Assembly: GCA_010356995.1 (NCBI GenBank)
Contig: ML996709.1
Location: 200,606 to 264,605 of the forward strand
Length of the DNA stretch: 64,000 bases
Reading direction: 5' to 3'
Source of the DNA: Trichodelitschia bisporula
Taxonomy: Eukaryota
The notes below the pieces were generated by a model. The model was not told where the DNA came from. It worked only from the letters and a program-made list of their open reading frames with translations, and did not search any database. Position numbers and translations under genes: made by a program. Positions 26,701-48,765 of this stretch are shown piece after piece (the first letter of the stretch is position 1; the number at the start of each line of letters is the position of its first letter).

Positions 26701-26836
26701 TCCAGCTTCGAAATGGGTTCTACTTGCGGGTGATGGGAGGGTGCCGCTGGAGAGGATGAGAGAGCTGGCGGAGGACGTAGGCGTTAGGGTCTTGCGGTTT
26801 GGGGAGGTGGCGGAGGGGGTCGGCGTAAGGGACTAG
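23740..26836 (+). CDS. NRDE2: NRDE-2/Nrl1-like (DUF1740) nuclear RNA-processing HAT-repeat protein
   Basis: Short exon MDDNK plus intron 23755-23798, then KSAVPRFASFRPK; FVIDTKGDRDNLTY, YRRIGYGRVLG, PWNIEAWL, FVRDSGYHELAEALWQALLEF, FAEWWDLEGPRIGEIGARGW. Confidence 0.82.
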
Positions 26837-27329
26837 CGGTCTGGGGAGTTTGACGGAGGTCGGCGTTGGGGCCTTGCGGTTTGGGAAGTCGGCATGTATC
26901 ACGGGGTCGCATGGAGTTGGATGGAGAAGGTATGCCCCCGCATTGGGATTTCAGCTAGCAGCATAGGGAGCTTTAATATCTTTTCGCTCGAGAGTGCGGT
27001 ACCGCAACCTGACAAAGGATCATCTCGGATCATGGATGCTCTCTGTGTACACTTCGTCTGGGAGGAGGAGTGGTCGACCATTACTCCCAGAACCGGCTTC
27101 GAGCTTTCTTCCTCATGGCTTATTGCACATGTCTGCATTGCCTTTTCGCCCTCGACCACTAGCTAGAAGCCGCCCGACAGGGCTCAAGGACTACCCGTGA
27201 AAGTCATACCGGCCCCTGGCCACAAAACCCAGGCTGTACGCAATGGCGTAGCGGTCGGGAAGTGAGCTGTACATCCGTAAACAGGTTCATTTGCTCGTGC
27301 AAGGCCTATTTCGGCAGATTTGAACCTCG

Positions 27330-28487: not shown

Positions 28488-29295
28488 CGTTGGCTAGGTC
28501 GTGGGGTGGTTGTTGTATGCCTTGATCTTGCTCTTTGCGGGTAGAACTAGATGTTAGACAATGTCGAAGGATAGAATATCTCAATATCACATACGGGGTA
28601 CGTACAGGTCTTCCGAAGCGAATGTCTTGCAAGGCTGCCCAGCAACAAGACGAGGCACTGATACCGACAACGCCGGGTGATGTGCAACGCAGCGGATGGA
28701 GGAGTGTCCTGCCAGCAGCGTGGAGATCGTATATGTGATGAGAAGGGCACTTGTGATAGCGTTGCGGCGGGGGTGTGGTCACTTTAATATATGCCGGCGG
28801 TGGGGGCTGTGCCCAAGGGCTACCTGAAATATCCATGCCTCGCCTGGTCTTTCGACAAGGCTACGCTAGCAGCCATGCCCCGCGTAAAACGGCAGGGGCG
28901 CCACCTGCAAAAGTCGTGGCGGCCCCGGTCCGCAAAGCCGCCCAGGCGGGAGGCCATGAATATTTCAGAAGACCCTTGAGCACAGCCCCACTGCCAACGC
29001 GATAAAGCGACCGCACCCTCGCCGCAGCATCACCACCCGCACTGTTCCCATCACACCTACGATCTCTACGACGCTGTTGGCAAGACACTTCTTCACTCGC
29101 TGTGTCGGACATCATATTACGCTCTCAGTATCAGCACCTCGTCTCGTTGTTCGGCGGCATTGTTAGAAACCGTGCGACAGAAGACCTGTACGTAGCCCGT
29201 ATCTGATACTCAGATTTTCTCTCGTCACATATCGTCTGACATCTACCTGTAAATAGCAGGATCAATCCATAAACAATCCCACGACTCAGCCAACG

Positions 29296-30000
29296 ATGTG
29301 CGAAACTGTTATCCTCACGCAAACTACGCCGACAGGCTCCACATTTACTACGCACATGGAGAAACTGTGCACAAACTCCAATGGCCGAGATCAATGCGAA
29401 CAGCATACCGTTCGGGAGACGACGCAGTTCCCAAAGGAATGGGCCCTGCTCGGCTGGTCCAACGTTTCTCCCTCCAATCCTGATACCTTGGTTGGCCCCA
29501 GGCGTAGCGAGGCATCTACCGTTTTTAATGAGGCGGTTGAAATCCCGCTTCCTCCCAGTCGGTACAATGCGTCGGCGGCGGATTCGATCATGGAAACCGG
29601 GACATCTAGCCCAGTCTTTGGCCGCAAAAGAGATCCGGAAATGCAACCGTTGCGGAAGAGCAACCGGCGCGTCGTGCAGCATGTTGAACGAGAGCCTGGG
29701 CCTAAAATGCCCGAACCGGCACCCATGGAAGATTTTCAGGTAAAACAAGTGTCTTTGGAGGTAAAAAGAATGCGGTTGGAAGCACTGCTGAATGACATGA
29801 GGGACTACGAGGAGAGGCGGGGCCAATCTCAAGAAATATCTGACAAATTGATGTCGTGTCAAAAACAGCAGCAGAAGGTAAAAGACCTGGAAAACGAGTT
29901 GATTCCATTGGTACAGGCTTTGGAATTGAAGTTAGGCCTTTTGGAAAGAGAGTTAGATGCATTCGAGGTGGCGTTGGAGGGATGGTTTGGACTAGTATAA
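29296..30000 (+). CDS. IPLPPSxY-family member 2 (subfamily A), 234 aa: Cys-containing N-terminal module, motif, C-terminal coiled coil
   Basis: Intact ORF MCETV...LCTNSNGRDQCEQH...AVEIPLPPSRYNAS...LELKLGLLERELDAFE; 5'-UTR intron-like segment ~29188-29260 shared with members 1 and 3. Confidence 0.8.
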   Translation: MCETVILTQTTPTGSTFTTHMEKLCTNSNGRDQCEQHTVRETTQFPKEWALLGWSNVSPSNPDTLVGPRRSEASTVFNEAVEIPLPPSRYNASAADSIMETGTSSPVFGRKRDPEMQPLRKSNRRVVQHVEREPGPKMPEPAPMEDFQVKQVSLEVKRMRLEALLNDMRDYEERRGQSQEISDKLMSCQKQQQKVKDLENELIPLVQALELKLGLLERELDAFEVALEGWFGLV

Positions 30001-30469
30001 TGGGCTATGCACGAGCAAATGAACCTGCTTACAGCTCACTTCCCGACCGCTACGCCATTGGACACAACCCCAGCCGAATCAACAAGGCTGTCTAGCAGTT
30101 ATGTCCAACACAGAACGGCCATCGGCCCCGGTCCGCGAAAGCCCGCGGGCAGAAAGGCCATGAACTTTTGGGGTCTGGGGCACAGTCCCACTGCCAGCAT
30201 CTTAAAATGACCACATCCCCACCTCACAGTTACCGTAAGCGCTAATCTCATCACGCATACAATATCTATGGTCCTTCAGCCGTTTTCTAACATTAGACAG
30301 CGTCGTTCTCGTCCGAGCCTCATCCATTGGAAAGGAGCCTTGCCCCAGAACCGTGCGACAAAATATTGGTATGTATCAATACCGGTCTCATTCGCTTCGT
30401 CTCGCATCGACTAACACCTCCTCCGAATGGCAGGACTAAGCTCTACAGCAAGCCCACTCTTAGTTAACA

Positions 30470-31170
30470 ATGTGTCAAGCCACTATCTCACGTACTGTTA
30501 CGGAGGAAGGCCTGCCGCCTCTCGTTACGCGGACAACTAACCTGTGTCCACGCTCCGACGGTCAAAATCTCTGCGATCTGCACCCTCCTCACGAGAGCGC
30601 GGCGGTTTCAGTAACCTGGCCGTCGTCCAACCAGCTCAACTTCCCCTCGGCTGGCTCGCTCCTGTCTTTTAACCCCAACCCTAGCGAGATGTTCACCCCA
30701 TTTGGTGAGGGCGTTGCGATCCCTCTTCCCCCTAGCAGATACGATGCGTCGACGTCAGATTCAACTATAACCTCCGGACTACCCAGCCCACTTGTTGGCC
30801 GCAACCGAGATCTGGAAACGCAACAGGTACATGAGGAAGCCCACGGCTCTGAGCAATCGCAACATGTGGAACAGGAGCCTAAGCCGAGAAACCTTAAACC
30901 CTCACTCTCGGAATATGACCTAAACAGAGCCATATACTTGCAGCAGAGACGAGTAGAGATGCAATGAGTACTGAGTGCGCTGGACACCTTCACAGAGGAG
31001 AAAGGTCGGTTACGAGATGCATATGTTATTTAGTCACGTCGAAAAGATGACTGGATATCACGTCAAAAGCAACCGCCGATGGTAAACAAGATGGAACAAG
31101 AAAACTTCACTCTATTCGGAGAGGCTTTGGAGTCAAAGGCAAAGCTGGATCTTCACCGAAAGGCTGTTAG
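30470..31170 (+). pseudogene. IPLPPSxY-family member 3 (subfamily A), truncated by TGA at 30965
   Basis: MCQATIS...LCPRSDGQNLCDLH...VAIPLPPSRYDAS...EQSQHVEQEPKP. After the stop, a degraded coiled-coil remnant (QKQPPMVNKMEQE, EALESK) parallels member 2. The end is approximate. Confidence 0.75.
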
Positions 31171-32061
31171 AAGAGGTTGAAAGGAAAGTGGGTGAACAGG
31201 CATCGTGCCTGTAAGCTCCTTGAGCCAGGATCTGTTATCTGATATCCATGGTCCGGTTTGTGGATATTGTAAGACCTTTATCTGTAGTAACCTACGTACA
31301 GTCCGAGTTGCTTGCTAGATGAATATATTTCCAAGAGAAATTTGCTCTATAACTAGTAATTAACACACAGTTTCCGATCTCATAGCTTTGACAGGACCAC
31401 CTAAAATAGGCGGTGAAGAACGACTAAACCTCTCAACTCATGCTTTGAAACAGTTGTATTAACCGCTGTTGAGGAGGAGAAGAGCTGGCGAAGAGGACGT
31501 AGCAGTACATCTCACTCCATGACCGCAGCGCTGAGAGCCCGCCCGTCGTCGATGAACAAGCAAAGATGATGCAGAAGCTCGGGCCGTCCCACCTTTCCCC
31601 GCGAACCTACTTTCACGCTAAGCCCTACCTCCTCAGCCGAGGCCTGATTGGGCACAGCCCCAGCCGGGCCGATAAGGCTGTCCCACACAACTCCACCCTG
31701 CAGCCCCAGAAAATTTGTCACACACGTCAAGCTTGGGAAAGAACATCAGCTCCCAACGACGCGAGGAAAATTAACAAGCTTGCTTGGTGTAGCCACAGCA
31801 TCTATTCATACCCCTAAACCGAGTTCATGCGTTTTTCTATCGCCTGTTGTGGTCGTTTTTGTCGTCGTAAACCCTGTCGGTCTGTGACACTTGATATTTC
31901 CTCCCCTGTGGCGGCTTAGGGCGGTCTTGCAAGTTATGGCACAGCCCCATTTCCAACCTGCTATTATTTGGTGCGCACATTCCCCTGGATTGCCTCAAGG
32001 AGTGATTCTTACGCGTTCAATTCGAGCACCGCCTTGCCACGGATCCTACGGCCCCAGCACC

Positions 32062-33250
32062 ATGTCCAAACTCATTATCCGCAACACTGTCACCAACTCA
32101 GGAGCGCAAGCACAAGCTGAGGAAAAGCGACTTGGTGCGCGCTCCGACAGCTTGCATCTGTGCCCTACAGTTAAACGCCTCACCCGGCCCGAATCCTCGA
32201 TAGCTCTTCCATCTGGTCTTGGGTCCACTAGCAGCCCCATCTCTGTCCCTTCTTCCCCGGAAGACACCGTCATGCTTGATGAAGCGGGGGCAATTCCGCT
32301 TCCGCTCAGCAGATTCACCACTCCAGCCTCTACAACGTTGTCGCCTCCTACGGTCGGCCAAGCTCATGAGGGGACAAGGACGCTATCGCCTTCCCTAGCT
32401 CTCAACCCCATTCCCGAGGCGAGAGTAGAAGTACAAGAACAGAAAGATTCAGTTCCGAATAACATCCAACCCAAGTTAGGGAAGGCCAGTGAGCCGGGCT
32501 CCGCGCTTATGCCGACCGTTACCACCTGTTTCATCTGCAAGGCCACCTTTCCCAGCGTCCCGGACTGGCTCAAACACCAAAAAGACTGCCCGTTGCCCGC
32601 CAAAATTGGCCGTTTGCGGAGCAGCCCTCACCCTCCCAGTCGCCCCTTGAAATTCGCCCGGCTCACTGTACCTAAAAAGGGAGTGGTATTTGTCGTCGAC
32701 CACCCCCGCGTTAATGCCACACTCGACCGGTATAACTTGGCTAGCGACGAGGGCGCGCCCGGGCTGCCCCGGACGAGCTTGACGAAGACGACAGCACCTC
32801 TGATGGCACGTTTAGTTCTGGTACCCTCAACTATCCACCTCGCTCGGCTACTGATATGGAATGGCGACTGAGGGATTTAGAACTAGACCTTAAAGTGGAA
32901 GATCAAGAACGGGAATTGTGGAAACGTGAGATCAAAAGACTAAGACGGAGATGGTTCTTAAAGAGGAGACACGCAATACTAGAGCGGAGAGCTCAACAGG
33001 ACATAAACGTAGAGAACACGCATAACCCTGACCTCGTTTTTAATGTCAATTGCGCGAACACGGAAATGGATGAAGTGGAAAGGAAGTCAGCATTCCTGGA
33101 AGACGCGTTAGAAACGGCGTTGAACCATTTGGAACTGCACTTAATAGAAAAAATGGGTAAGCATCGACGCCTATATTGCAGATTTGTTATTCTAACTCCA
33201 CGTTAGGGATGGACGCTTTTGCCGACCGCCATCTACCGATGGGTTTTTAG
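32062..33250 (+). CDS. IPLPPSxY-family member 4 (subfamily A) with C2HC zinc-finger-like motif and coiled coil; probably spliced
   Basis: MSKLIIRNTVT...RSDSLHLCP...AGAIPLPLSRF...CFICKATFPSVPDWLKHQKDC. A phase-0 intron (32668 or 32686 to 32744), or a frameshift, joins the coiled-coil ORF. Intron 33157-33206 (gtaagc...ctaac...tag) gives LELHLIEKMGMDAF, like the member 2 tail. Confidence 0.65.
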
Positions 33251-33593
33251 GGCAGGATTGACTGATGCATCAAGGCAGCGAGGCAGCACGATATCGTTAA
33301 CACGGTGGCATGCTGGAATCATGCCATGACACAATATCAAGTCTTCGGGGCAACGTACGGTATGTTGATAGACCTGAGATTTCTCTCTCAACATCATCAA
33401 TTCAAGCATTCTCTCCAAGCTGTCTCATGCCATAACCCTAATACGGTTGACAGCTTTAGGACTTTGACAATTTCTGTGGCCTTTCTATGCACCTAAGAGT
33501 CTGGCTTTTCGGCTTCTGCAATACATTTCGTACCGTTCCAGCTTCAATATTTGCTTCCATTTCAGCACTAGGAGCCCGCCTGTCACTATTTTC

Positions 33594-34199
33594 TCACCGT
33601 GGAGTTTTACCGAGTAGATGCTCCCACGGCAGCAATAGACTCGGTGGGTCGGAGTGGTACACGGTGCTGCATGCGGGGATCGCGCTAATTGTGCTGACCA
33701 CCATTATTCCGAAGAAAGATGGTCGTTCCTCTTTCTGTAACCATTTCAGTTTGATCCGCACACCTTTCCTTCCTTCCTTTCCACTATGTCTCTCTTGTTT
33801 CCCCTCGAGCACTTCATCCAGCCGGCTCTCGGAGGAAGCAGGGGGAAGTGTCTCAGAGGAAGCAGGGCGAAGAGTGCCTGAGTATACCGACGTGCCCTAT
33901 AAAGACCTCGCATACGCCGATGTTTCGTACACCGATGTCTCTTATGTCGATCTCTCGTCGTTGCTGGGCCATAGCGGAATCTTGAAAGCAGAGTGACACT
34001 CTACCGATGGGTCATAGGAGTGGAAAGACCTCTCATACAACGAGTTCTCGTATGTGGATCCATCGTAGTTGCTGGGCGATAGTGGAATCTCGACAGCAGA
34101 GTGGCACGCATCCAGAAGCGCCGGATTCATGACTCGAATGGCCAGGCTCTCGTATTGCTTCCAAAAGCTGTTGGCGGGGTGCGGGTTCGGGAGAGACAT
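33594..34199 (-). pseudogene. IPLPPSxY-family member 5 (subfamily B), internal motif duplication, two in-frame stops
   Basis: CHSAVEIPLSPSNYDGSTY...CHSAFKIPLWPSNDERST*ETSVYETSAYARSL*GTSVYSGTLR aligns with member 6; its 5' flank 34225-34330 matches 37823-37930. Confidence 0.8.
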
Positions 34200-34644
34200 G
34201 GTCGCAGGCGTTACTAGTCGGAGAAGCTGAAGATGTTTTTCGATGGACAGAATCAGCGGTGATGAGAATTATTCTCACAATTATAGTCGTATGGAGGCAG
34301 CAGAGGATGTGTTTGCGCGAGATGGTGCGGCTCGCAAGCAGAAGTGGGATCGGCTGTGCTTTCGTGTCCGGTAAGCGGGTAAAGTTGGGCAACTTGGAAC
34401 AAGCCCCGCTTTCGGCCCCAGCCTAATGGCTGACCCGACCCTGCGGGCCTTGCCAACTGAACTACCGTCGATCTAGTTCTAAGGTACGGTACCCCGCAAG
34501 CCACTGGGGCGCGGACCTACCAGGGAGTGCCGGGCAGGACAGTTCGCGCCCTGCGAAACCTCACGAATCTCGTTCTAGCTCGACGAACCCTAGACACTGC
34601 CCGACGACGCCCCAACCTCTCAAACAGTACCCGCCCCACCAACC

Positions 34645-35559
34645 ATGCTCTTCCACGTAAAAAAGCTGCTCAAGGGCGCATGGTAGTACAGGTTTTGCGA
34701 TGATATATAAAGAGCTATGATGGTTTTACAACAGTTGCCCGAAACTGCTCGCCATGCGCCTTACCAAGATTATACGCCGGCTGCTTCGTTCATTCCCCGA
34801 TCGAAATAAGGCTACGACCGTCGCAGTCGACGCCAACGCCGACGCCAACTCGCCTAGAGCCTCCAGGCCGAGTAATCTTACTTCCTGCGATACTAGCCCT
34901 GGACCCGAACCGTTAGCCCGCCATGTTGCGTCCGTCGCTGAAATAAGCACAGGTGACATTCCTGTGTCGGAAGGTATAAATCCTACAACGGGTGCTGTCC
35001 CCGTCAGTGTCCTGGATGCGAAGGAGCTTAATGCGGGTACGATCATCATGAACTATTAGACACGCCTGACATTGTACTAGGACTGCCTGCGGTGTCGGAT
35101 TTTGCGCCTCGTGACGATGGTTGGTTGAATGAAGAACCTTGCTCGCCTCTTTATTCCGAGGACGAAGATGATCAGTTGTCCGAAATGACCTCGTCGAACT
35201 CGTCCATATATTCCAGGTCTTCAGTAGGAGCCAAGCGGGCCCGGTTCAAAAGGGGACGAGCAAAGCAGAGAAAACCTGGGATCCGAGTGCTTGAGCGGCT
35301 CAGCTTGCCTCATCAAGGGCCGGTGCAGGAGTTGGAGGCAAAGCCCCTGAGCCGAGAGCAGCGGACAGCCCTCTGGGTGAAAGAACAGCAGACCAGAGAC
35401 TGGTCGGCAAAACAAGCGGCAGAGTTTGAAAGTGACCGGCCTCATTCAACGAGATCTTCCAGACGGCCATCACCTGGGCTGGTCAAGCCGTCGGGGCGTG
35501 CTTCTAGCGAGGAGTCTTCTCCTTGGGAGGATTCTCCCCTCCCATCTGTTTGCGCCTGA
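34645..35559 (+). CDS. Orphan, probably three-exon, Ser/Arg-rich disordered protein
   Basis: Introns 34683-34734 and 35037-35080 (gtacga...ctgac...tag) join ORFs 34754 and 35092 in frame. No family motif or recognisable domain seen. Confidence 0.5.
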
Positions 35560-36161
35560 AATATCGCTGCGTCAAATCATCTGAATCTCAACAGTCTTGG
35601 TGGAGGACGGATTGGGGTCCCCCCTGTTGGAACTTTAAGGGCAGCGTTGCTCAGGTCAGAAAGGCTGAAGCGACATGAGTCGGCCTGTTAGAACTAGTGA
35701 TTGGGCGGCTACTGGAAGTCCCGAACTTATCTCTTCCAAGAAAAACGCAAAAGTTGAATCCCGCAGGATACCATACTCAGCCGGACATGCCGCTGAAAAA
35801 AGCCTGCGCTTCGTCGTCAAATGCCTTCACTCTGCATTACTGTGATGATTGCCTGTGCTAACGGGTCCGGCCCCACCTTCCCCGCAACCCGCTTTCACGC
35901 TACCGTACCGGGCCGTACCGTAGGACGTGCGCCGCCGAACCCTAGCCTTATTAGGTAAAGCCTCAGCCGGGCTGATAAGGCTGCGGAAGCCACCCAGCAG
36001 CCATGCGGTTACTTCTAGGCTATGACACAAGCCCCGCAGTTGCCAGCATTTTTTGGGGTGTGCGCATTCCCCAGCATTGCTCCGAGGGTATTTTCCACCA
36101 CGCTCACTTCGGGCACAGTTTTCCCGCGGATTCTCCGGCCCCTCAGCACTGCGCCATGATG

Positions 36162-36575
36162 ATGTGCCTATATAGCGTCTTCATAGTGGTCGCCGCCTCC
36201 GGCAAGCGGAGACGAACGGAGGGCTGGGAACTTTGCCGGACTGATGGCCAACGTCTGTGTTCTGGACCTCCCCTGCGAAGCGAGACAATCTACTATCTTA
36301 AGGACCAGGCAGCATATTTTTCCAAGGACGATGCATGCTATTTTCGCAAGGACGGGGCAACCATAAACGACTTTACGCCTCAGCGCATGGAGACCTATGA
36401 CATCGCCTTTCTTCCGATTCCGATCCCAAGTTCTCTGGCAACCCTGCCTCCGAACCCTCGATGAGAATGCTGTATACATGGTAAGGTGGTTTCAATTCCG
36501 CTTCCACTAGCCGTATACACAGGATCGGACACTGAGAGGCTGCGGCCCTCTCTCGCTCTCGTCCAAAGATGAAAC
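36162..36575 (+). pseudogene. IPLPPSxY-family member (subfamily A-like), degraded
   Basis: MCLYSVF...WELCRTDGQRLC (subfamily A Cys module). After TGA 36462-36464 the same frame reads VVSIPLPLAVY, and the DNA ATTCCGCTTCCACTAGCCGTATAC resembles member 7 ATACCGCTTCCACCTAGCCGGTAC. Upstream CAGCC..GATAAGGCTG element at 35964. Confidence 0.65.
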
Positions 36576-37261
36576 TCGAAAATACAAGTTTGAGAAGAGA
36601 AAAGGTCTGAGTCCAAGTGCAGCCGCAAGAGACGGTGAAGGTCTTCGGGCTGTCAGCACAATAAATACAAGCAGAATGGGACAAGCAAGAAGAAGATGCC
36701 CGCTCGGCGTCCGGCGTAAGTCCATCCTTCTTCTGAAAACACCAAGCGTATGACGCCCAGCGAGATACAACAATCTAGACTCGCAGCTTAAGACGCAGGT
36801 TATTCTCTCCCTCCACAATTCTTTTGTCCTTCTCGCGACAACCTCCTTATCTTTCGGATCGGGATCATCAACTTTCAGTCGGTTGGTAAACCCAGCCACA
36901 GAGGAAGGCAGATCATAATCACCTTCAGCCACTTCTCTCGCTCCCCTTTCCCCTTCTCATTCTCATTCACGCCAACGGAGTCAGTCACCAGGATTTACCC
37001 AAGAAGGATGATGGATTGTCACAAATTCTCTATGCTGGCAGAAACACGTACGTGTTGGCTACGTTCAGCGTGCCTACCAGCATAGCAAACGCTCTTCACT
37101 TGTGCCAAGATCATCTTTCTTCGAGCATAGACCGCGCCTAGATAGATAGAGAGTCTTGAAGAGAACCTCTCGCGCTCCATCGTCCATCCTTCCAACTGCT
37201 TCCCGCTCTGCGTCACATACTTCCTACTGAAATATCGTGTGAGTAAGAAAGAGGAGGATTT

Positions 37262-37795
37262 CTATTCCTTCTTCTTCCCGTTCTTTACATAAAGTGCCAA
37301 CTCCCTTCTTTCCTCCCGATTTAGCAGTGGGGACACGCCATTCTCCACTTTCCCATCGTTAATTTGCAGATCATAGACCGACGGTCTCGTTACTACCGAG
37401 AGCCAACGTCCGGCCATTAATACCCATTGGTCCCACCGACCGCGGCCTCCCGCTCTTTCCCGATTCATGGCCGCGGCCAGTACAGATAGCTGGTCCTCAG
37501 AGAGATAAGAACCAATTGTCGCAGCAGACGAAGAAGGCTGAAGTGCCTCAGTAAAGGAAGAAGAGCGAAGTGTCCCATCAGAGGAAGAAGAGCGAATGGT
37601 CTCAGCATATATCGACGGGTCATATGAAGACCTCGCATAGACCGATGCTTCGTAAGAGGAGCTCTGGTATGACGATCCATCGTAGTTGCTGGGCGGTAGT
37701 GGAATCTCGACAGCAGAGTGGCACTCATCCGGGACGGCGGTTTTGATGATTCGCGTGGTCCGGCCGTTGGCGGGGTACTGGTTTGAGGGAGCCAT
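37262..37795 (-). CDS. IPLPPSxY-family member 6 (subfamily B), intact
   Basis: MAPSNQYPANG...CHSAVEIPLPPSNYDGSSYQSSSYEASVYARSSYDPSIY...; open to the stop at 37262. Confidence 0.75.
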   Translation of the reverse strand: MAPSNQYPANGRTTRIIKTAVPDECHSAVEIPLPPSNYDGSSYQSSSYEASVYARSSYDPSIYAETIRSSSSDGTLRSSSFTEALQPSSSAATIGSYLSEDQLSVLAAAMNRERAGGRGRWDQWVLMAGRWLSVVTRPSVYDLQINDGKVENGVSPLLNREERRELALYVKNGKKKE

Positions 37796-38913
37796 GATCG
37801 CCGGCGGTGGCTGGTCGGACAAGGCTGAAGATGTTTTTTGATGAACGGAATCAACGGTGATAGGGAATCTTTCTCACAATGAGAGTTGGATGGAGGCAGC
37901 GAGGAAGTGTTCGTGAGAGATGATGCAGCCTGCTGACGAAGGTGGAGGGGCGGCTTTGGTTTTCTTGACTGGCGTGACAGGTTGTGTGGCTGAAGTGAGG
38001 AAGGGGGGGTGAAGGGCTGATAGGCAGGCTGACTGATGCAGTGCCGTCTCTGCCGTACTGTAGTTCTAGCACATCGACACGTCATACTTTCATGAGATAA
38101 CGGTACGTTCCGTAGAATACGCCCTCTTTCAAGTTCCCGGCCGATGAGCCAGCCGAAAAACGCACGACTACGGTACCCTGCTTGCGGTAGGCGCCTTTTG
38201 ATCACGCGGCGGCCACGACCTTTTTAGCTAGCTTTTGGCCGCAGTCATGGTGTGTGGTACTGGCAAGGCTGTGTACCACACCCATGCGGTACTACGAAGC
38301 GCGCTGGGCAGTAATCCACTGAAGGCCGGCATGGAGCTGCAACAGGTAACGTTAACTCTCAGGTCGCGGGATGAACGCCTGGGCCAGGAGGGCGATTAAC
38401 CTTAAGGCGTACAGCATGCTTGGACGAGTGTAACGCATCCGCGTCAACCAACGACAACAGCGATATCACCTGCTCGGAATCATTCGACCAAGGGAGCAGC
38501 TCCGCGCTATACAGACCGGTGAGGCTCGAAAACGCCCGGCCGACACTCCCGACAGCAACCGCAGTCAGAAAACTCCAAGCGGTTGCTTTAGTGTCTGCTT
38601 TCCTAGGTAACAGATGGGACACAATCCTCCAAGAGCAGAGATTCGGAATCATCTAATTGTCATCAAAGACAAAAGGCCTCGCGAAAAGTTCGTGGTAGTC
38701 TCGCCAAAAGATGAGGCCGCCGTTTACCGGGATCCAGGCCAACCGTAAAAGCCGTGGGCACCTTTTTCGAGCGTCGTGCAGGCAGAGGCAGTCACAATTT
38801 TTTCATTGGATAGACCCTGTCCTTCCCCGCTGCCCGACTCGACTTCAAAGGTTATCTCCACTTCATCACCGTGAGAATCACAAGTCTCTCTCCAGAAACA
38901 GCCCAATCCCGCG

Positions 38914-39783
38914 ATGTATCCTGAATCGTCGACGGGGCGGTTCTGGGCCTCCTCTCCACCACCTCCGCCTCTACCACCGTTCAGATATGCACGAGCACAT
39001 CAGTTCTCCGGCATCCCCAAAGGCTCCTATCCAGTCAATCTATCTTACAAAGAGGGAATTCAGATACCGCTTCCACCTAGCCGGTACGGTTCGCTGTACG
39101 GTTCAAGTGCTTCCTATAACGACACTTCGTTCTACGGCTCTCGTCCTTCCGATCACGAACCTTCGTCATACCTACATTCTTCACATGCCGTCGGAGCGTC
39201 GAAACCTGCGACAGCAATGCACAAGGCTCTTGAGAAAGCAGGTCTGAATGGAAGAATACGGGCAAAGTGGGGTGGCCTGGTGCCGAGGGCAGGTGTGCCA
39301 GTGCCAATAAAAGAATCAGTAATATCGGGAACATGAGCAGGGAAACAACAATTGGACGGGGAGTCTTTGTCAAAAACGTTTCAAGCACCAAATATTCTAT
39401 GAGAGCGACCAAGATAGGACGGAGAAGTGGAATTGCTGCAAATGGAAGGACTGGAAGTTCTGACCGAGTTAGACGAGCTGGAAGAAATGAGAGTGGTGCA
39501 TCAACAAGATGTAGAATCCAATAGGGTAGTGGAAAATCTGGATGATGGGTGTGACGAAGCGACACCAGAAGCTCTGAAGTCACCGAATCCGGAGAGTCTG
39601 GGACAGGACTGCCGAAAGGCTGAGCAGCCTTATTCAGTGAAGGTCAGCATGGGATTTGAAGGGCCAGAACTAGAGAAGCGGGATGAGCACCGTGAGCCAG
39701 GAGGGCAGTTCGGGCTACTGCTGGGGGTCTCCACCGAAAGATTCGCTAGCCAAATCTGTTGGACGGATTCCCATTTATTATAG
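38914..39783 (+). pseudogene. IPLPPSxY-family member 7 (subfamily C), three in-frame stops
   Basis: PPPPPLPPFR...PVNLSYKEGIQIPLPPSRYGSLYGSSASY...GT*...IL*ERPR*DGEVELLQMEGLEVLTELDELEEM aligns with member 8 ILREQRERDGEVERLGVLDELTDLSEM in a single frame. Confidence 0.8.
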
Positions 39784-40766
39784 CCTTCTGATATTGTAAG
39801 TTCCTGTATCACTTCGGGCTCGGTATCTTTGTAGCCGGTGTCCGTTAGCGCTCGGGATTGCTTACCTCCGTTGTCTTGTTTCATCGTATCTTTGGCTCGA
39901 CACCACTCCTGTTTCATATTTCCTATATAGTACGAGTTGCCCACATGGTACACTCGACAGTTCAGTCTAGGTCAATCAACAGAAACCTTTGTTTCATCTG
40001 TTCTCAGCTTCTCCAGTCCAACAAAATCCGACCAAGGGAGCAGTTCCGCGCAATGTAAAGTCACGAGGCTGAAAAGCACATCCGGCAGATATTTCCGACG
40101 GCTATTGTGGTATCTGAGCTTCCAGCCCGCTCCTGCGTTGTCGACTTCGAGGCCTGGCAGGAGAGAGAGCACATAATGTCCCGGAGATCCGAGATTGAGA
40201 ACCGTTTGAGAGGATGGATTTCGTTCCGATATTACCCGGCTCCGGAAGTCATTGGCCATATGGCCGTCAGGTGAAAGACGGGGTTTAGGACAACAGCGAG
40301 CTTGCTAGGGAGCTACAATCAAAATTTCGGAGCTCTAGATACCGTCGGATGGGAAAGGTCATTCGTATCTGCCGGCGTCGCGATATCTTATCCAGCCTTG
40401 TCATCTACGTGGACCGGTAACCTTAGCCATTCTCAAATGGCTCCTTCAATGCGCATTCCAAACTGGGAATGCTCAGCAATACCACGGTTTTCTGCAGCCC
40501 GATAAGTTCCATGACCGCGCCTCGGAGACTACAGCGAGAGGGCTGGCAAGGCTATCGCCCGGTCATCTTTGCGGACGGGAGTTCAAGGACCCCCTGCCCG
40601 CGCCTACGCAGCCATTGGTCACAGTTGCAGTGCGCTAGGCCAGCCTGCGCATTTACCCCTCGCTGCAGAAACACGGCCCCGCTGTCAGCCCAGCTTACAA
40701 CATCATTTTCTCCACTTCATCACCGCAAGATTTCTCACTACGCTCGCTTCAGAAACAGTCGAAGAG

Positions 40767-41780
40767 ATGGATCAGACGGCGTACCTTAACCAGTTGGTCG
40801 ATTCGCTCCGGGTATCACCTCCTGAACCGCCCCCGCCTCTTCCTCCACCCAGAGACCCACTATCGCGCCTGCCCCCCTGCACCTCCGCACTACGGCAGCC
40901 AGCCCGCTCTAGAACTCTACTTCAGGACCCGGCATTTTCCCCACCACAGAAACCAGCCTTTGCCGGAGCTTCGGATGGCAGCTCCAAAGCCCCGAACCCA
41001 TTCCATCCAGCAACAACGCGAGAGATGGAACTGATGGAACTCACCATGACTCTCAGTCAATTGGCCGATTTGTTCCGGGCTCCATCTCCAAAAGCGCCCC
41101 CGCCTCTACCACCGCCCAGGGACGCACTACCGCATGAGCCAAGCAGCATCTCCACATCGTGGAAAAGGACTTTCGCCCGACTTTCGGACGACCACGTCAA
41201 ACCCTCTGACCCTGTCTCTCTGTCTTTTGTTGAGGGGACTGGCATACCGCTCCCGCCGAGTCGGTACGGCTCGTTGTACGCTTCTAGTTCTTCCTACTGT
41301 GGCGATGACGACTGGTTGTACTCGCGCTCTTCATCTTACATCCGGGCTTCAGAGCCCGGCGCACCGTCTCATCTAGCCGGAGCATCGTCTCCCCTAGCAC
41401 GTGGGAAAGCGGGCGATATGGACGATGAAATCTTTGCAGTCTTTGCGGAATCAAAAGAGCAGCCGGTGGTGCAAGGAATAGGAGTTTTGGGACGACAAAC
41501 AGAGGTGAAGCCTTTGCTAGGGAGTTCTCTGTTCTCAGAGATTTTAAGAGAGCAGAGAGAACGAGATGGTGAAGTTGAAAGATTGGGAGTGCTGGACGAG
41601 CTTACAGACCTGTCCGAGATGGCAGAGAAGCCGCAAGAAATTCCCGATGGTGGAAGGGCTGAGCAGCAAAGCCCAGCAACGTTTGGCTTGGAGCGGTGGG
41701 AGGAAGCGGCCACGGCGCTATTGATATATCTCTTCTTCCTTCTCTTCTTCGTATCACTGGGATATGAAGTGGTAAACTAA
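40767..41780 (+). CDS. IPLPPSxY-family member 8 (subfamily C), intact, with C-terminal hydrophobic (tail-anchor-like) segment
   Basis: Two PPPLPPPRD repeats, PVSLSFVEGTGIPLPPSRYGSLYASSSSY, and C-terminal ALLIYLFFLLFFVSLGY. Confidence 0.78.
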   Translation: MDQTAYLNQLVDSLRVSPPEPPPPLPPPRDPLSRLPPCTSALRQPARSRTLLQDPAFSPPQKPAFAGASDGSSKAPNPFHPATTREMELMELTMTLSQLADLFRAPSPKAPPPLPPPRDALPHEPSSISTSWKRTFARLSDDHVKPSDPVSLSFVEGTGIPLPPSRYGSLYASSSSYCGDDDWLYSRSSSYIRASEPGAPSHLAGASSPLARGKAGDMDDEIFAVFAESKEQPVVQGIGVLGRQTEVKPLLGSSLFSEILREQRERDGEVERLGVLDELTDLSEMAEKPQEIPDGGRAEQQSPATFGLERWEEAATALLIYLFFLLFFVSLGYEVVN

Positions 41781-42346
41781 TTGCTAATAATCTCTTCCTT
41801 GCTTTGATGCAGCATCGAACAGTTGTCGATTTAAATCCGGACACCCAATAGCGGGGTATCCACTCATGCCGCCCTAGGGAAAAGCTTAGCAACCCCGTGT
41901 ATTACTTTACCGGCAGCCCGATAAGTGTTTAGCCGCAGCTTGGTGGACACAACCCAGGGTAGCGGGAGAGACACGAGCTACCATCCATGTGAAGGCTGCT
42001 CCCGCTCGCCGTTGAGACAAGAAGTAGCGTGGCTGGCAGGGTTGCGGTACACCACCCACCCCTAGCCCGCACAGCCTTTTCATGCCAGACTAAGATCTCT
42101 GGAGCAACCCGAAGGATCCTGGCCTCCCCCCGCCTAGGCGTATTTGCGGATCGGGTTGGTCACGACTCTTTCGGATGGCCCTCGGCCGCAGTTATGGTGA
42201 GCAAGGCTGCGTACGATCCGAATTAATCTAAACCCATGCCTCGCGCTAAAGCACAGCCCCTCTGGCAGCTGAAGTTTAAACGACGTCTTCCCCAACTCAT
42301 CACTGCGAAAAATTCTCTTTACCTTCTTTCAGAGACAACGCAAGAG

Positions 42347-43428
42347 ATGAATTACCCGATGAACTCCAATAACGCAGTCGATGGGCGCTTGCCATCTCTA
42401 CCAAAACTGCTTACATCTCCACTTCCGCCCAGGCCAGCATCACCGCTTCTGTTCCCCGCATCTCCTTCGCACTTTGGTACAGCACGTAAACCGCAGGCTT
42501 TGATAACAGCTTCATTGGCTCCAGGAACAAGGTAGGATGTTACAGGATAGCCAGTGTGGTAGGCACGTGGGACACGTGAGAGATCCAGCAGTTACCAGAT
42601 CAGGCAGGATGTGGTCTATGCTTGGTGTTGAATTTGTGGCGGCAACCTGGGGTGGCTGGAGTGGAGCCAGGAGACAGGGGTTGTCTCCTGGTGAGGTATA
42701 TAGTCAGCTCACTTCCCACTGCTGGTCAGTCAAGCAACTCAGTCAAGTTCACACTTCATTTTAACACTTGGCATCAGCCTTCGCACAGGCCACCTCCCAC
42801 AGTAGATAGCTTAGCTGGAGAGCTTCACTCTCAATCCCCAGTCATCCCTGACCTTACCGCTACAGAGTCCACGTTGCATTCAGCATACTGTGACACGTTA
42901 TCCGTGCTCGGACCCCCTTTCTTCTCTCACGCTGGAAATCACAACACCATCGGCTATGACGACAGCATGTTGGCCTATGGCGACAGCATATTGGCGGAGG
43001 CGCGCGAAATACCACTGCCATCTAGCTGCTATGGATCGGGATACAGCTCGAAGGCCTCGTCGGGCCCCAGGCACTACCCGTATAAGATTAGACGCCGGGT
43101 TGCGGACAGAATGAGGGTGGGAGCAAGGGTAGAGGTGGAGGAAGTCATAAACCAAGAGTATATACAGCCTCAAGAGAGGGGGAGAAGAGATACCGAACGG
43201 CTTGCACATGTAGAGGAGGCGGAGGTGGAGGGAACGGAGGTGGAGGAACCAGAGGAGGACGAAACGGAGGAGGAAGATGAGGAGGTGGTAGAGATGGAGG
43301 AGGCGGAGGTGGAGGAGGCGGACGCGGAGCAGGCGAAGGAGACGGAGGCGGAGGAAGCAACCGATCAAGAATATATGGAGTCTCAAGAGACGGCGGGAGA
43401 GCAAAAAGAATGGCTAGCGAAGTTATAG
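42347..43428 (+). pseudogene. IPLPPSxY-family member 9, interrupted (~42500-42895), Glu-rich C-terminus
   Basis: The 5' leader matches members 7 and 8 (CATCACYGYRA...CAGARACA...ATG). N-terminus SPLPPRP, stop at 42533-42535, then ILAEAREIPLPSSCYGSGY and a poly-Glu tail. Splicing that rescues it cannot be excluded. Confidence 0.6.
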
Positions 43429-43766
43429 AAGTCGGAGAGGATGAGGGTGGCTTACTGTTACAGGTATTGGCTGGGTTTTTATGCTCGTAACTTAACTTCT
43501 ACCTGATGTACTGTGGCATAAAGCTCTTAGCTTAATCCGATCTATGATGCAAATTCCTTTGGGTTGCTGAAAAGCTGATATCAGTTTCTGCGCCCATTTG
43601 TATGCCCCATCTGCTGTTTCCACCACGCGGTGGCACAAATGAGCCGCATAAAGCTGGTGTTGGCGGGGTCGAAAGGACCACCCCAGTAGTTCCCCCATCA
43701 TCAGCCCTTCCTCGGACTAGTACAACTCCTCTTACTTCTCATCTGATCCATCCGCAATTCTTCATC

Positions 43767-44762
43767 ATGAATCCGTCAGCGATGGGTGGTGGCTCTCCCT
43801 CCCCACGGCACAGCCGACCTTCGGCGTCCACACCGTCGGAATGGCGTATCCCACTGTCACCGACTACAAGCAGCGCGCCTCATATTCCTTACGTTGCCCG
43901 ATGGATCAAAAATACGGCGTCCGCAGTCCACCTTCCTCTCCCTGTGCACGATGGGGACCGCAACACCGCAGGCTCGGGCGATAGCACGTCATCCGAGGCT
44001 CGTGAGATTCCGCTCCCGCCTAGCAATTATGACGGATCGATGTACCAATCGACGGCAACCTGGAACAAGAGCTCGGTATACTCGCGTGTACGAAGCTTCT
44101 GTGGTCGAGCACCGTCTACGTGTACGAGCATACCGAGCTGCTGTGGTCGAGCACCATCGGCGAATGCGAGTATACCGAGCTGCTGTGGTCAGTCACCGTC
44201 GGTGTATGCGAGTACGACGCGCTTCCCGCTGGCGACTCAGAATGCTATGAATCTGGGCGGCTTTACGGACAACGTGCCTATGGCACAGGAGGCAAATTTG
44301 GAGAGGGAAAAATCACTGGAATTGCTGTCCTGGCTGATCTGGCTTCAAGGCATTCTACAAAACATGCGGGCAGCGTTGGTGCCGGCGCGGAGCACGCAAG
44401 ACACAAGGCGGGCGCAGCAGCTGGAGTGGCTGATACAGAAGACGAAGTTGATGAAGCACGATGTAAAGGAGATGCAACAGATGGAGGGACGGTTCAAGAA
44501 CGATGTTTTGCTGGAATGGCTTAATAATATGCTGCGAGTATTGAAGGGAGACCTAGCTGAGGCCCGGGGGCGACTTCGGGCTGTGCGGGCGGAGATGGGA
44601 AGGGGTGAGGGAGATCCTACGGAACAGCTAAGGCTGGAAGTGGACTTGAAAGTTGAGATCAAAAACCGGGAATCTTTGTTGGCGGCCTTTGAAAGAAGGA
44701 AGCAATGTGTCAAAAAAGAGAAGGGAGTAAACAGACTTGCAAAGATGCTAGGTTGGGTGTGA
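43767..44762 (+). CDS. IPLPPSxY-family member 10 (subfamily D), intact, WLxWL helices plus coiled coil
   Basis: MNPSAMGGGSPSP...SEAREIPLPPSNYDGSMY, 14-aa CGRAPS repeats, LSWLIWLQG...LEWL...LEWL. Confidence 0.78.
   Translation: MNPSAMGGGSPSPRHSRPSASTPSEWRIPLSPTTSSAPHIPYVARWIKNTASAVHLPLPVHDGDRNTAGSGDSTSSEAREIPLPPSNYDGSMYQSTATWNKSSVYSRVRSFCGRAPSTCTSIPSCCGRAPSANASIPSCCGQSPSVYASTTRFPLATQNAMNLGGFTDNVPMAQEANLEREKSLELLSWLIWLQGILQNMRAALVPARSTQDTRRAQQLEWLIQKTKLMKHDVKEMQQMEGRFKNDVLLEWLNNMLRVLKGDLAEARGRLRAVRAEMGRGEGDPTEQLRLEVDLKVEIKNRESLLAAFERRKQCVKKEKGVNRLAKMLGWV
44099..44215 (+). repeat. 42-bp coding tandem repeat (~2.7 copies, CGRAPSxxxSIPSC)
   Basis: ctgtggtcgagcaccgtc...gagcataccgagctg is repeated at 42-bp spacing. 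Confidence 0.8.
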
Positions 44763-46209
44763 TGCCGCTATGAGCTGCCTGAGCCGTGGGGAATTGCCAG
44801 CGTGGTTGATTCGACTGGCGTTTTGTCTCGTTCGGCGGGAGGACATAATTGGTGGTCTTGTTGAAGGTGTAGTGGCATCTTATCCATTTCGATATGGATC
44901 CTGAGACCGGCAATTGCCGACATGAATGTACCTGTTACTAAACATCCTCCACCACACCCCTACACCGTGGCTGTGTTTGGCTTTACCATCCTCTTCCTCT
45001 CTTTCCTCTGCATCTGATATTTACAATCATCCATCTGCATCCAGAGTTTTGTGCACACTTGCAGTGACCGTGACAAGAGGAGAACAAGCAGACACTCAAA
45101 ACGTTACAGTTGGACCTATCAAGATGGGCAAGGTCGGAGCCGGCAGTCAGAGCGGAACTCAGGATACGACAGGCAAAAGTTGCTAGAAACATACAACAGA
45201 TAGAAGCAGCACTAGGCTAGCGGGCTTCAAAAATTTACGAACGGCACGGAAAGATGGGGAGGCGACGCAAAAAGGGCAAATGCCATTCGCATTTTGAGAA
45301 AGTACCGGAAGCAACTTGAAACTGTGCGGTCGAAGCTCCAGAAATTGGAACTAGGGATTATGGGGGCCATTTTCAGAGCGGAACTCGAGACAAAAGAGCA
45401 AAAATCGCTGCCGAAGGGAGATTGTATAGAGAAAATGCTGACGGCTTTGGAATCTGAACCTCAGGTCTTAAGGAGAAAGGGATGCAATTTAGTCTTAGCT
45501 AGAGATGATAACATCGGCTACTACCGACAAGAATGTATCTAGCACTATTCCCAAACATATTCCTCGTTAACAGACTTACCAGACCTCAAAAGCCTCTCTC
45601 ACGTTTAAACCCGCCCGTCAAGGCGACTCCATTTGGTACACATCCAGCAAGACCACCAGATCATACCCCGCCGAGCAATCCACAACGCAAGCCTCAGCCA
45701 GCCGCATAAACGACGTCACCAACCACCCATCTCATCCAAACCACGCCGTCAGCCTCTACTCCACCAAGAACCACCTATTACTAACCTTAGTCGTACCCGT
45801 CCCGCCCGAACATCGCTGCCAGAGTCAGGGCAAGGGTGAGTCTGTGGCGAAGAGGGAGAGCCTATGTGCTGGATGATCAGGGTGCGTGCGGGCAGGCCGG
45901 TACGGACGGGCTGGTGTGGGTAGGGTAAACTCGGACCAGGGATTATGCCCAGATAATACGGTAGGAGATATGTTGCAAGTTCATTCAATTCCTTTGCGTA
46001 GCTGCGAGCTAGTGTCAGTTCTTGAGGATCAGGTTAACCCTGCACATTCAATTTTCTTTTTCCACTGTGTGGCTGTGTAAGGTTAATTCAGCCGCATAAG
46101 GCTGGTGTTTGCGGGGTCGGACGAGACAGCCACAACAACTGTCACCCATCGCCGCACACCAGTGGACCTTCCTTACTTTTCATCCGATCAAACCACGCAC
46201 TCCCTCATC

Positions 46210-46833
46210 ATGACCCCGTTAGTGATGGAGGGTGGCTCTTCCTCCCCGCATGGCCGGCCTCCGACCTCGAGGCCCCTGCCCCCCCCACCGGCCTTCGACC
46301 CCGAGCATCGCGATGCGGTAGGCAACATTTACGGTAGACGGAGGAAATGCCGGGAATTATACTGCAGCAGAGGCGGTTGGAAATGGAGGCGTGGCTAGAT
46401 TGGCTTGGACCTATGCTTGTTTTAGCGAAGAAGACGGAGAAGAGATGGCCGCGTTCGCCGTTGGTACGGTGTAGGAGTTGGACGGGGATCATGGAGGTAA
46501 AGTGGGGGATGTTAGTTCTATTGCTTAGAAAAAATGGTCAGAAGCCAGAAATCCTACTTCTAGAAGAAAGGTTGGTGTGGCTCGGTGAATACGAGAAGCT
46601 GACAGAGCTATTGGCGGAGGACCTGCGTGAGATGGAGACAGGGTTTCGAATTGTCCGGCAGATGTGGCGGAGGGATAAGAGGATTGCTGGATCTGATGGG
46701 ACCTAGAGAGCGGCACTGGCGAGAGATGTGATGGTGTTGCAGGACGACGTGGATATCCTGGAAGGGTTACTGGCGACTTTCAAAGCAAGACTGCGAAGTC
46801 AGAACGAAGAGACAAGACAGTGGGAGGGACTTT
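46210..46833 (+). pseudogene. Family member 11 (subfamily D), frameshifted, motif region lost, 3' end hit by a solo LTR
   Basis: MTPLVMEGGSSSPHGRP resembles the member 10 start; EAWLDWLGPML resembles member 12 EWLHWLGLML; shared upstream element at 46089. Confidence 0.7.
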
Positions 46834-47091
46834 TGATGTGGGCACACAAGGCATCGAGGCATCAAGACAAGCATGGTTACTTGCGGAGTATAATATCTTA
46901 GGAAGCAGCGTATGACCCTGAGTTGGGGTGCATGCCGATGGCAGGCACCGCTGACCTAGCGAGGGAAGAAGGTATGGGGGGATATGGTGTACATATTCCA
47001 GTGTGCCTCTCGACTCTCTTCCGTTTATTGTCTTTAGCAAACAATCAGTTTACACAGATGCCGTTGCATATGCAGAAAGTTGCTCCCAATA
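46834..47091. mobile_element. Solo LTR (258 bp) with 5-bp TSD ACTTT
   Basis: acttt|TGATGTGG...CTCCCAATA|acttt (TSDs at 46829-46833 and 47092-47096); the 3' ~160 bp clearly align with the LTR at 27359-27656. Confidence 0.85.
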
Positions 47092-47522
47092 ACTTTAGCC
47101 CACCTAATCACACCTCAAGGTTTATCCAAATTTATCAAGTGTGAGAACGGATGAAGATTTGGAGCTGGTACCGTGATTAGACAGGAGGAAGTATACATGT
47201 ACGGGTGGCATCAAGGAAATTTGAGTTGTGATAGTTCTTCCCGGTCCACAGACCTGTTCGTGCCGGGCACAGCGCGAGTACCAAGGGCCGGCCCGAAGAA
47301 ACCCACCTACCGGCTCGTGCCGCCCACTGGTGCAACGCCAAGCCCCCCCGCATCTTGTAGAACTAAGGGTTCAGCCGCACAAGGCTGGCGCTGCGGAATC
47401 GAACGAGACGACAACAACAACAGTCACCATCGCCGCCTACTAGTACAACGCGCCTTACCTCTCCTCCGGTCGCGCCCCGCTCTCTCTCATCATACTCATC
47501 CCTCGCCACAATCCCATTCGTG

Positions 47523-48497
47523 ATGGAGAGTGATGTCTCCCGCGCTCCGCAGCGCCGATATCCCCTCCCTTCACTCCCGCCAGCCCCACTCCTGTCCGAC
47601 CAGTTCACGCTCCCTCTCAACAGCTCCGTGGATGCTGACAATGGGCTTCTAGCGGAAGCGCGCGAGATACCACTCCCGCCGAGCCACTACGGATCGACAT
47701 ATACGGCGACGACGCACCACTACAGCTCGACGTATGCATCTACGGCACACTACTCATCGGCGACACGGGGTTCAGTCCGCCGGGTTTTTTTTGCGGGCGG
47801 TGTAGGGGAGCCGCAGGAAATAGTGACACGGGGTTCAGTTCGCCGGCGTTTTTTTACGGGTGGTGTGGGGGAGCCGCAGGAAAGAAGGGAGAGGGAGCGG
47901 CTAAATGTAGCTTGGAATAAGAGGCAGAGAAAGAAAATGACGGGACTAGAGAGACAGAGAAAGACTAGGGAGTGGAAAGAGATGCGGAGCGAAGAAACGA
48001 AAAGGACGGAGGGGTTGGGAGAGGAAGTGAAGGGGCTACTAAGGCAGGAAAAGGAAAGGGAACGGCTGGGGAAGATGTTTGGGAAGAAAGAGTGGCTACA
48101 CTGGCTTGGACTCATGTTGGATTGTGCATGTGCGATGCAGATGACGATATGGGGCGAGATGGGGCTGAACTGGCCGCAACTTCAGCTCCAGTGGCTGACG
48201 CGGACGATGCAGATGATGCAGGAACTGGACGGGCAGACGATGGGGAGAGAGCAGAAAGGGGTTCTGAAGCACCTTCACGGCGCGCTAGAGCTTTACGTGC
48301 ATGTGCAGGGGGAGCTGCTAACGCACTTTCGAGGGTTTCGGTGGAAACAGCGGGTTAAGAGGTTAGGGGCGTGTGTGGTGAAGAGCGACATAAAGGCATG
48401 GGAGTTAGAGCAGAACTTAATAGCCTTGAACACGTTACAGGAGGCCTTCAAAGCACGGAAACAGAATCTGGAAAGAGAACTCAAAGCGCTGCGATAG
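47523..48497 (+). CDS. IPLPPSxY-family member 12 (subfamily D), intact
   Basis: LLAEAREIPLPPSHYGSTYTATTHHYSSTY, a 63-bp internal duplication (47762/47825), charged coiled coil and WLHWL...QWL helices. Confidence 0.78.
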   Translation: MESDVSRAPQRRYPLPSLPPAPLLSDQFTLPLNSSVDADNGLLAEAREIPLPPSHYGSTYTATTHHYSSTYASTAHYSSATRGSVRRVFFAGGVGEPQEIVTRGSVRRRFFTGGVGEPQERRERERLNVAWNKRQRKKMTGLERQRKTREWKEMRSEETKRTEGLGEEVKGLLRQEKERERLGKMFGKKEWLHWLGLMLDCACAMQMTIWGEMGLNWPQLQLQWLTRTMQMMQELDGQTMGREQKGVLKHLHGALELYVHVQGELLTHFRGFRWKQRVKRLGACVVKSDIKAWELEQNLIALNTLQEAFKARKQNLERELKALR

Positions 48498-48765
48498 GCA
48501 CTATTATTCAGACCAGTCTAATCACACACTGTACGCCTTACGCAGACTGTCGGCCTCACGCACACTGTATAGCTCACGCACACTGTACACCCGTGACACC
48601 TCACGCACACATGTACACCTCACGTATACTGTACACGGCACGTACAATCTCACCCACACTCAACCATACATCATACACATGCCCCACCTACAGTACTCTA
48701 CCTAACCCACACCACACCCAGTCCTCAAGTCATCAACGCCGAAAAATGCCCCTCAACCAACGCCC

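Follow-up and report, generated by a model that had tools for sequence, protein, structure and literature searches.

Results

A tandem gene family between housekeeping genes

The window analysed here is a 64,000-nucleotide (nt) stretch of Trichodelitschia bisporula contig ML996709.1 (assembly GCA_010356995.1, positions 200,606 to 264,605 of the forward strand), and all coordinates below count from its first letter. Its segment from 27.6 to 48.5 kb is best explained as a family of about 12 tandem genes that evolves by birth and death and has no detectable relatives outside the locus, with [EA]-I-P-L-P-P-S-x-Y as the family-wide constant peptide. This peptide, hereafter the motif, is the sole invariant block in an alignment of 11 family members (consensus EAxEIPLPPSRYGSxYxS), and its IPLPPS block is kept as protein while the surrounding sequence has been randomised. 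A first-pass annotation of the same DNA had placed a motif family at 29542..47690; the family is indeed there, yet its true extent is larger, about 27648-48497, because a looser search finds extra copies. The members, with their open reading frames (ORFs), are as follows.

27648..28493, minus strand: G0, a decayed inverted duplicate of G1 whose single reading frame contains three in-frame stops; from 28079 it has the motif copy IPLPLSR*Y, in which a stop (the asterisk) replaces the motif tyrosine; over 528 nt its DNA is 69.5% identical to that of G1; protein-library entry P0007 is an 84-residue fragment of G0.
29296..30000, plus strand: G1, 234 residues; motif EIPLPPSRY at 29542-29565.
30470..30967, plus strand: G2, a 165-residue ORF; motif AIPLPPSRY at 30719-30742; a C-terminal helix-like part at 31034-31177 lies in the same frame behind in-frame stops.
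31936..32871, plus strand: G3, a 311-residue ORF; motif AIPLPLSRF at 32293-32316 and a second element, PHPPSRP; helical continuation at 32745-33203 in another frame; the annotated model is P0004, 257 residues, 'hypothetical protein EJ06DRAFT_570471 [Trichodelitschia bisporula]'; unique among the members is a C-x2-C ... H-x3-C stretch resembling a single zinc-finger-like element.
33942..34268, minus strand: G4, short and decayed, in which 108 nt are duplicated internally (repeat families D2 and D3), giving two degenerate motif copies, IPLSPSNY (from 34088) and IPLWPSND (from 33980).
37262..37795, minus strand: G5, 177 residues, library entry P0005; motif EIPLPPSNY from 37705 down to 37682.
38914..39336, plus strand: G6, a 140-residue ORF; motif QIPLPPSRY at 39064-39087, plus an additional PLPPFRY (38968-38988); an in-frame stop separates the ORF from a stretch, 39418-39780, that is homologous to the C-terminus of G7.
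40767..41780, plus strand: G7, 337 residues; motif GIPLPPSRY at 41244-41267 and two extra PLPPPRD copies at 40836-40856 and 41103-41123.
42967..43428, plus strand: G8, 153 residues, library entry P0006; motif EIPLPSSCY at 43009-43032; behind it a 15-nt periodic GAG-rich tract (43198-43379, D1) encodes a glutamate-rich acidic run.
43602..44762, plus strand: G9, a 386-residue ORF with a helical C-terminal half; motif EIPLPPSNY at 44007-44030; three 42-nt units at 44089-44214 form an in-frame 14-residue repeat (D5).
46038..46898, plus strand: G9b, a relative of G9 and G10 in its leader and helical parts, without a motif copy; a frameshift and a stop interrupt its reading frame.
47523..48497, plus strand: G10, 324 residues; motif EIPLPPSHY at 47667-47690; two in-frame 63-nt units of 90% identity at 47762-47883 form a 21-residue repeat.

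Paralogy was tested with a small local database, in which all stop-to-stop frames were compared with one another by BLASTP: G1 and G2 share 33% identity over 166 residues (E 1e-25), G6 and G7 46% over 110 residues (E 5e-17) and G4 and G5 50% over 72 residues (E 7e-18), with weaker links among G5, G6, G8, G9 and G10 (E 1e-7 to 3e-4). As judged by these alignments, paralogy is established by similarity of the flanks, independently of the motif. Open frames of 85-386 residues carry it, mostly on the plus strand with G0, G4 and G5 on the minus strand, and they lie in an island of lower guanine-plus-cytosine content, 51-55% versus 56-64% in adjoining 2-kb intervals. The flanks are ordinary fungal housekeeping genes, to the left a U3 snoRNP10/HEAT protein and an NRDE-2 protein that ends at 26836, and to the right phosphatidylserine decarboxylase, SRP19 and others. 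None of 10 member ORFs scored above the Pfam gathering threshold, the best E-values, 0.13 and 0.28, failing the cut-off.

The family is a mix of intact and decayed members, with stops or frame breaks in G0, G2, G3, G4, G6 and G9b. Repeat-induced point mutation was considered as the driver of divergence and rejected, as the cluster has normal indices (TpA/ApT 0.77, (CpA+TpG)/(ApC+GpT) 1.20); the differences between G0 and G1, 83 transitions and 78 transversions, likewise weigh against it.

Conservation of the motif as protein

The degenerate codon string ATH CCN CTN CCN CCN AGY occurs seven times in the window, versus 0.01 expected from dinucleotide-preserving shuffles, none of 100 of which reached seven. 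The sites are 29542, 30719, 37688-37705 (minus strand), 39064, 41244, 44007 and 47667, and the six codon strings quoted in the first-pass annotation were all recovered, at 29542, 30719, 37705 (minus), 41244, 44007 and 47667. With a looser six-frame protein search for I-P-L-[PSW]-[PLS]-S-x-[YF] there are 12 copies between 27.6 and 48.5 kb, the additional ones being at 28079 (minus), 32293 (plus), 33980 (minus), 34088 (minus) and 43009 (plus). A possible thirteenth, a degenerate remnant reading IPLPLAVY in a 35-residue open stretch, lies at 36495..36518 on the plus strand and was seen in the ORF map only.

Across the 12 copies, I-P-L occupies the first three positions and serine the sixth without exception, proline is found at position 4 in 10 and at position 5 in nine, and position 8 is tyrosine in nine, with one phenylalanine, one aspartate and one stop. 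Position 7 is free (six arginines, four asparagines, one histidine and one cysteine). Read codon by codon, the leucine is CTN and the serine AGY in every copy; the earlier claim that the serine is AGY thus extends to all 12, and the common descent of the copies that had been proposed on that ground is borne out.

Nei-Gojobori counts were made on the 10 intact-looking copies, with G0 and G4b, which have stops nearby, left out. The six IPLPPS codons have a proportion of nonsynonymous differences (pN) of 0.047 and of synonymous differences (pS) of 0.754, with synonymous sites saturated, and the ratio of 0.06 compares with 0.55 for the six upstream codons (pN 0.457) and 0.77 for the six downstream codons (pN 0.591); the variable codon at position 7 stands at 0.73. 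When all 12 copies are counted the IPLPPS ratio rises to 0.10. The comparison of motif with flanks that the first-pass annotation had proposed therefore supports its view of conservation at the level of protein and not of DNA. Neither gene conversion nor a DNA or RNA element can explain the conservation, because third positions are randomised, and a conserved RNA or DNA element was also ruled out by a search of 27-49 kb that gave no Rfam matches.

Disordered N-terminal part, tyrosine/serine tract and helical C-terminal part

AlphaFold2 models of G1 and G10, run with the family alignment, predict a disordered N-terminal part that carries the motif, followed by an alpha-helical C-terminal part. 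The G1 model lacks secondary structure over residues 1-142 (block predicted local distance difference test values, pLDDT, of 42-67) and has one long helix at residues 143-233 (pLDDT 97-98), while the G10 model is unstructured over residues 1-118 (pLDDT about 40-57) and has six helices in residues 119-323 (pLDDT about 70-90). The motif lies inside the unstructured part in both models, without secondary structure and with block pLDDT of 39-67 around it. A Foldseek search of the PDB with the G10 model gave no match at E <= 0.001 and only generic helical hits. The C-terminal end of G7 has about 17 hydrophobic residues and then four more, and judged by sequence alone this stretch appears to be a putative tail (membrane) anchor.

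Behind the motif, the first-pass annotation had described tyrosines recurring every 4-7 residues in three subfamilies, and this holds in seven of 10 ORFs and three of the four subfamilies; the three tyrosine tails that it quoted are present in G6, G5 and G10. In the 40 residues after the motif in G4-G10, 32 of 280 residues are tyrosine, versus 19 of 1280 elsewhere in the same proteins, and the aromatic spacing is mostly 4-7 residues, with six tyrosines at exact 5-residue spacing in G5. The summed fraction of serine, threonine and glycine is 0.38-0.45 in the tails of G5, G6, G7, G9 and G10 and 0.23 in those of G4 and G8, compared with 0.11-0.23 elsewhere in these proteins. The 40-residue tails of G1-G3 hold no such tract. 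FUS-like low-complexity domains are built of [G/S]Y[G/S] units in a sticker-and-spacer arrangement. The tracts of G4-G10 resemble them in part, having tyrosines at a regular spacing of 4-7 residues separated by serine, glycine or threonine, but differ in having only 3-6 tyrosines over about 25-40 residues and in being missing from G1-G3.

Distribution

When 1.84 billion representative proteins were searched exhaustively with the family profile in HMMER, seven reached E <= 0.001, all of them products of the window (G1, G7, G10, G3, G5, G8 and the G0 fragment). A word-based search with G10 returned G10 itself as the sole hit among 3579 candidates, and one with the family profile A1 returned at E <= 10 three proteins, P0004 included, all on one 349,038-bp contig. 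Of 109 metagenome stretches that match [ES]A[RV]EIPLPP, none was confirmed as a relative by tblastn. In the ESM Atlas the best score with G10, 0.76, was within the noise range, and the family names that came with it, DUF7708 and Goodbye, were not used. On these searches the family is, as far as the collections show, confined to one locus; relatives in unsequenced sister taxa are possible. Our literature search found nothing in print on the IPLPPS peptide or its variants in fungi, and the titles and abstract openings of papers naming Trichodelitschia bisporula show nothing on the family.

Transcription evidence

Runs X3 and X4 were classed as RNA by guess, no run being on record as RNA, and X1 is DNA. 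Contigs from X3 and X4 have uneven depth and contain short joints, bounded by GT..AG or CT..AC, that X1 lacks; one of these, 29187>29257 (GT..AG), is in both runs. These RNA-like contigs cover G1 (29257-30119), G5 (37254-37998), G6 (38914-39896, unspliced), G7 (40695-41807), G9 (43695-44599) and G10 (47404-48650), which provides weaker evidence, resting on runs guessed to be RNA, that these six members are transcribed. All six carry IPLPPS[RNH]Y, and departures from this form are found in the broken copies (G0 and G4), in G3, whose helical part is out of frame, and in the short G8. Neither run gave contigs over 33362-36691, and almost none lie over 31364-33361 (G3 and G4), which is not evidence of silence.

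Further RNA-like contigs lie at two places between members. One at 38175-38833 is spliced on the minus strand, with an intron at 38337-38400; it lies upstream of G5, close to the left of where G6 starts, and represents a long leader of G5 or else a transcript of its own. At 45483-46010 there are contigs with a minus-strand intron at 45731-45785 (CT..AC), for which the other run uses an alternative donor 5 nt away; the minus strand has no ORF of at least 60 residues here, and the stretch, which separates G9 from G9b, may give rise to a transcript that is non-coding or antisense.

Neighbouring sequence

Three stretches between family members, 39800-40023, 42626-42766 and about 44913-45016, have a DNA word depth of about 13,000-32,000, versus about 450 in the surrounding single-copy DNA, with many loose ends at their edges in all three runs and no Rfam match. 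These are high-copy dispersed repeats, resembling miniature inverted-repeat transposable elements (MITEs) or short interspersed nuclear elements (SINEs). Short direct repeats at 27501-27636 and 46940-47077 (71% and 89% identity), 19.4 kb apart, lie just outside the left cluster edge and between G9b and G10, respectively, and may have been left by the duplication from which the array arose. Relative to the window, DNA run X1 has an 8-nt insertion behind 30029 and odd joints around 28700-30008, at the inverted duplication of G0 and G1, which suggests assembly or strain differences at 28700-30029. On the right the cluster is adjoined by a 663-residue ORF at 48766-50757 on the minus strand, rich in proline, alanine and glutamine and without a Pfam match, in which a hydrophobic segment is putatively membrane-spanning.

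Discussion

The observations at this locus are selection on the motif, a disorder-plus-helix build and restriction of the family to the locus. Short linear motifs typically show themselves as a strongly constrained block, here of eight residues, within a disordered region of proteins that are otherwise free to change, and we lean slightly towards the view that the conserved peptide is a selected docking motif of this kind in a lineage-restricted, fast-diverging family. We infer the rest of the scheme: the motif would recruit one conserved cellular partner, most likely a proline-recognition module, with an SH3 domain as the best single candidate; the serine/tyrosine tract may add weak multivalent contacts or phospho-regulation; and the divergent helical ends could set the oligomeric state or the location. 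The proline content of the core is in favour of a proline-recognition partner. The extra PLPPxR copies reported in the first-pass annotation were found, one in G6 and two in G7, and together with PHPPSRP in G3 they point to multivalency of proline ligands. That annotation had also suggested a docking motif beside a low-complexity tract; the short-linear-motif signature and the predicted disorder agree with the first part, while the second stands for three of the four subfamilies and falls away for G1-G3.

Several points weigh against a docking motif of this description. The IPLPPS ratio is not a true dN/dS because synonymous sites are saturated, and the counts compare paralogues of one genome only, themselves picked via the motif, so that the contrast between motif and flanks is partly ascertainment. 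The partner protein is putative; a basic residue is found at position 7 in only six of 12 copies, strict P..P.[KR] in four, and the invariant isoleucine, leucine and serine and the conserved tyrosine are unexplained by PxxPxR. The runs that cover six members are RNA by guess. In a single-register heptad test of the a and d positions, 1064 of 2000 shuffles reach the value observed for the G1 helix, and because this is no better than shuffles we call residues 143-233 a long helix rather than an established coiled coil. Nor could homology be demonstrated between the C-terminal helices of subfamilies A and D (hhalign probability 1.9%).

The most specific form of docking is that one SH3 domain reads a class II ligand, PxxPxR, across the whole family. 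The class II SH3 scheme is hydrophobic-P-x-hydrophobic-P-x-basic, with which the I-P-L-P-P-S-R core agrees, and the conserved Ile-Pro and Pro-Pro pairs fit its two xP pockets. Strict P..P.[KR] is matched in G1, G2, G6 and G7, and further PxxPx[KR] copies are present in G6, G7 and G3. PXXPXR is given as the consensus of the Grb2 N-terminal SH3 domain (PMC5417721). The P..P core is present in nine of the 12 copies, missing from G0, G3 and G8. However, P..P.[KR] fails in eight of the 12, including the copies of three intact members with RNA-like contig cover (G5, G9 and G10), and position 7, which must be basic for such a ligand, is the least constrained codon of the motif. The PLPPSR fit to a class II ligand noted in the first-pass annotation thus applies to G1, G2, G6 and G7 and fails for the other copies. 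Compared with known class II ligands, the family likewise places two xP pairs, within a proline core, in a disordered region and has in those four members an exact match, but it has asparagine, histidine or cysteine in place of the basic residue in six of 12 copies and keeps the isoleucine, leucine, serine and tyrosine. We consider a single SH3 reader for the whole family rather unlikely. A paper on the binding of the Lck SH3 domain to proline-rich sequences of CD2 reportedly contains PLPPSH, the G10 variant, which we take as a lead only.

Other classes of proline ligand were compared as well. Their patterns include those of WW (PPxY, PPLP), EVH1 ([FYWL]PxPP; PPxxF) and MYND (PxLxP) domains, and none of the 12 copies matches a WW, EVH1, Homer or MYND pattern. 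For WW group I (PPxY) the spacing here is PPxxY, with no match in 12 copies, and for EVH1 class I ([FYWL]PxPP), also unmatched in all 12, the first position is isoleucine throughout. IPLPP is one residue off the EVH1 class I pattern, and PPSxY one residue off PPxxF.

A more novel reading, which seems to us quite unlikely, is that this is a young family of interchangeable carriers that arose in this lineage, in which only the eight residues that capture a conserved hub of the cell are selected and the remainder diverges freely. One copy would then have gained a membrane anchor, and others acidic tracts, repeats or helical bundles.

The conserved residues could instead mark a modification or turnover site, that is, a phosphorylation site or degron centred on the serine and the tyrosine, or a site of prolyl modification or protease cleavage. 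Serine is present in all 12 copies and tyrosine in nine, with one phenylalanine in its place, and the motif lies within a disordered stretch with a serine/tyrosine-rich tract behind it. However, eight constrained residues including isoleucine and leucine exceed the needs of most kinase sites, no known consensus is matched, and dedicated tyrosine kinases are rare in fungi, and we therefore give this explanation little credence. We think it very improbable that the motif has the helical domain of its own family as its target, whether in the same molecule or in a paralogue, in an autoinhibitory or network-forming manner. Motif and helical C-terminal part do co-occur in every intact member, and pLDDT rises slightly at the motif (67 for G1 block 81-90 versus 42-50 nearby, and 54-57 for G10 blocks 41-60 versus about 40). 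However, the AlphaFold models put no secondary structure or contact at the motif, and the helical parts cannot be aligned between subfamilies while the motif is invariant, which is not how a co-evolving pair would look. That the genes are non-functional, decaying duplicates in which the motif is conspicuous only through the picking of copies is barely credible, despite the stops and frame breaks in six members and the lack of relatives elsewhere: it is already disfavoured by the pN/pS counts of motif and flanks, the paralogues are defined by flank similarity independently of the motif, neutral decay at saturated synonymous sites would erase an 8-codon block, and six members have long open frames and RNA-like contigs.

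The locus resembles other taxonomically restricted tandem families of fungi in being a local array with inverted and direct duplicates, in which intact members are mixed with decayed ones, and in forming a lower-GC island between housekeeping genes with no homologues elsewhere. It differs in that one short peptide is fixed across subfamilies while the rest has diverged to saturation. The family is a new, lineage-restricted one, and would act in the manner of known carriers of proline-rich linear motifs. The usual basis for inferring short linear motifs is weak conservation among alignable orthologues; here the motif stands out residue by residue because about a dozen paralogues have diverged to saturation, and the positions that matter are I, P, L, PP, S and Y, while the supposedly defining basic residue does not.

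If the carriers are young and interchangeable, the cluster would provide one hub with a natural set of retargeting adaptors or of competitive decoys, or alternatively be the product of an internal genetic conflict, and in either case it would offer a clean model for the birth, fixation and sub-functionalisation of a short linear motif. If no partner of the motif is found, what remains is a well-described family of orphan genes from a fungal order that is poorly sampled; if one is found, the locus would supply ready-made variants (R, N, H or C at position 7, with or without the tyrosine tract, with or without a membrane anchor) for the study of motif specificity and of orphan-gene evolution.

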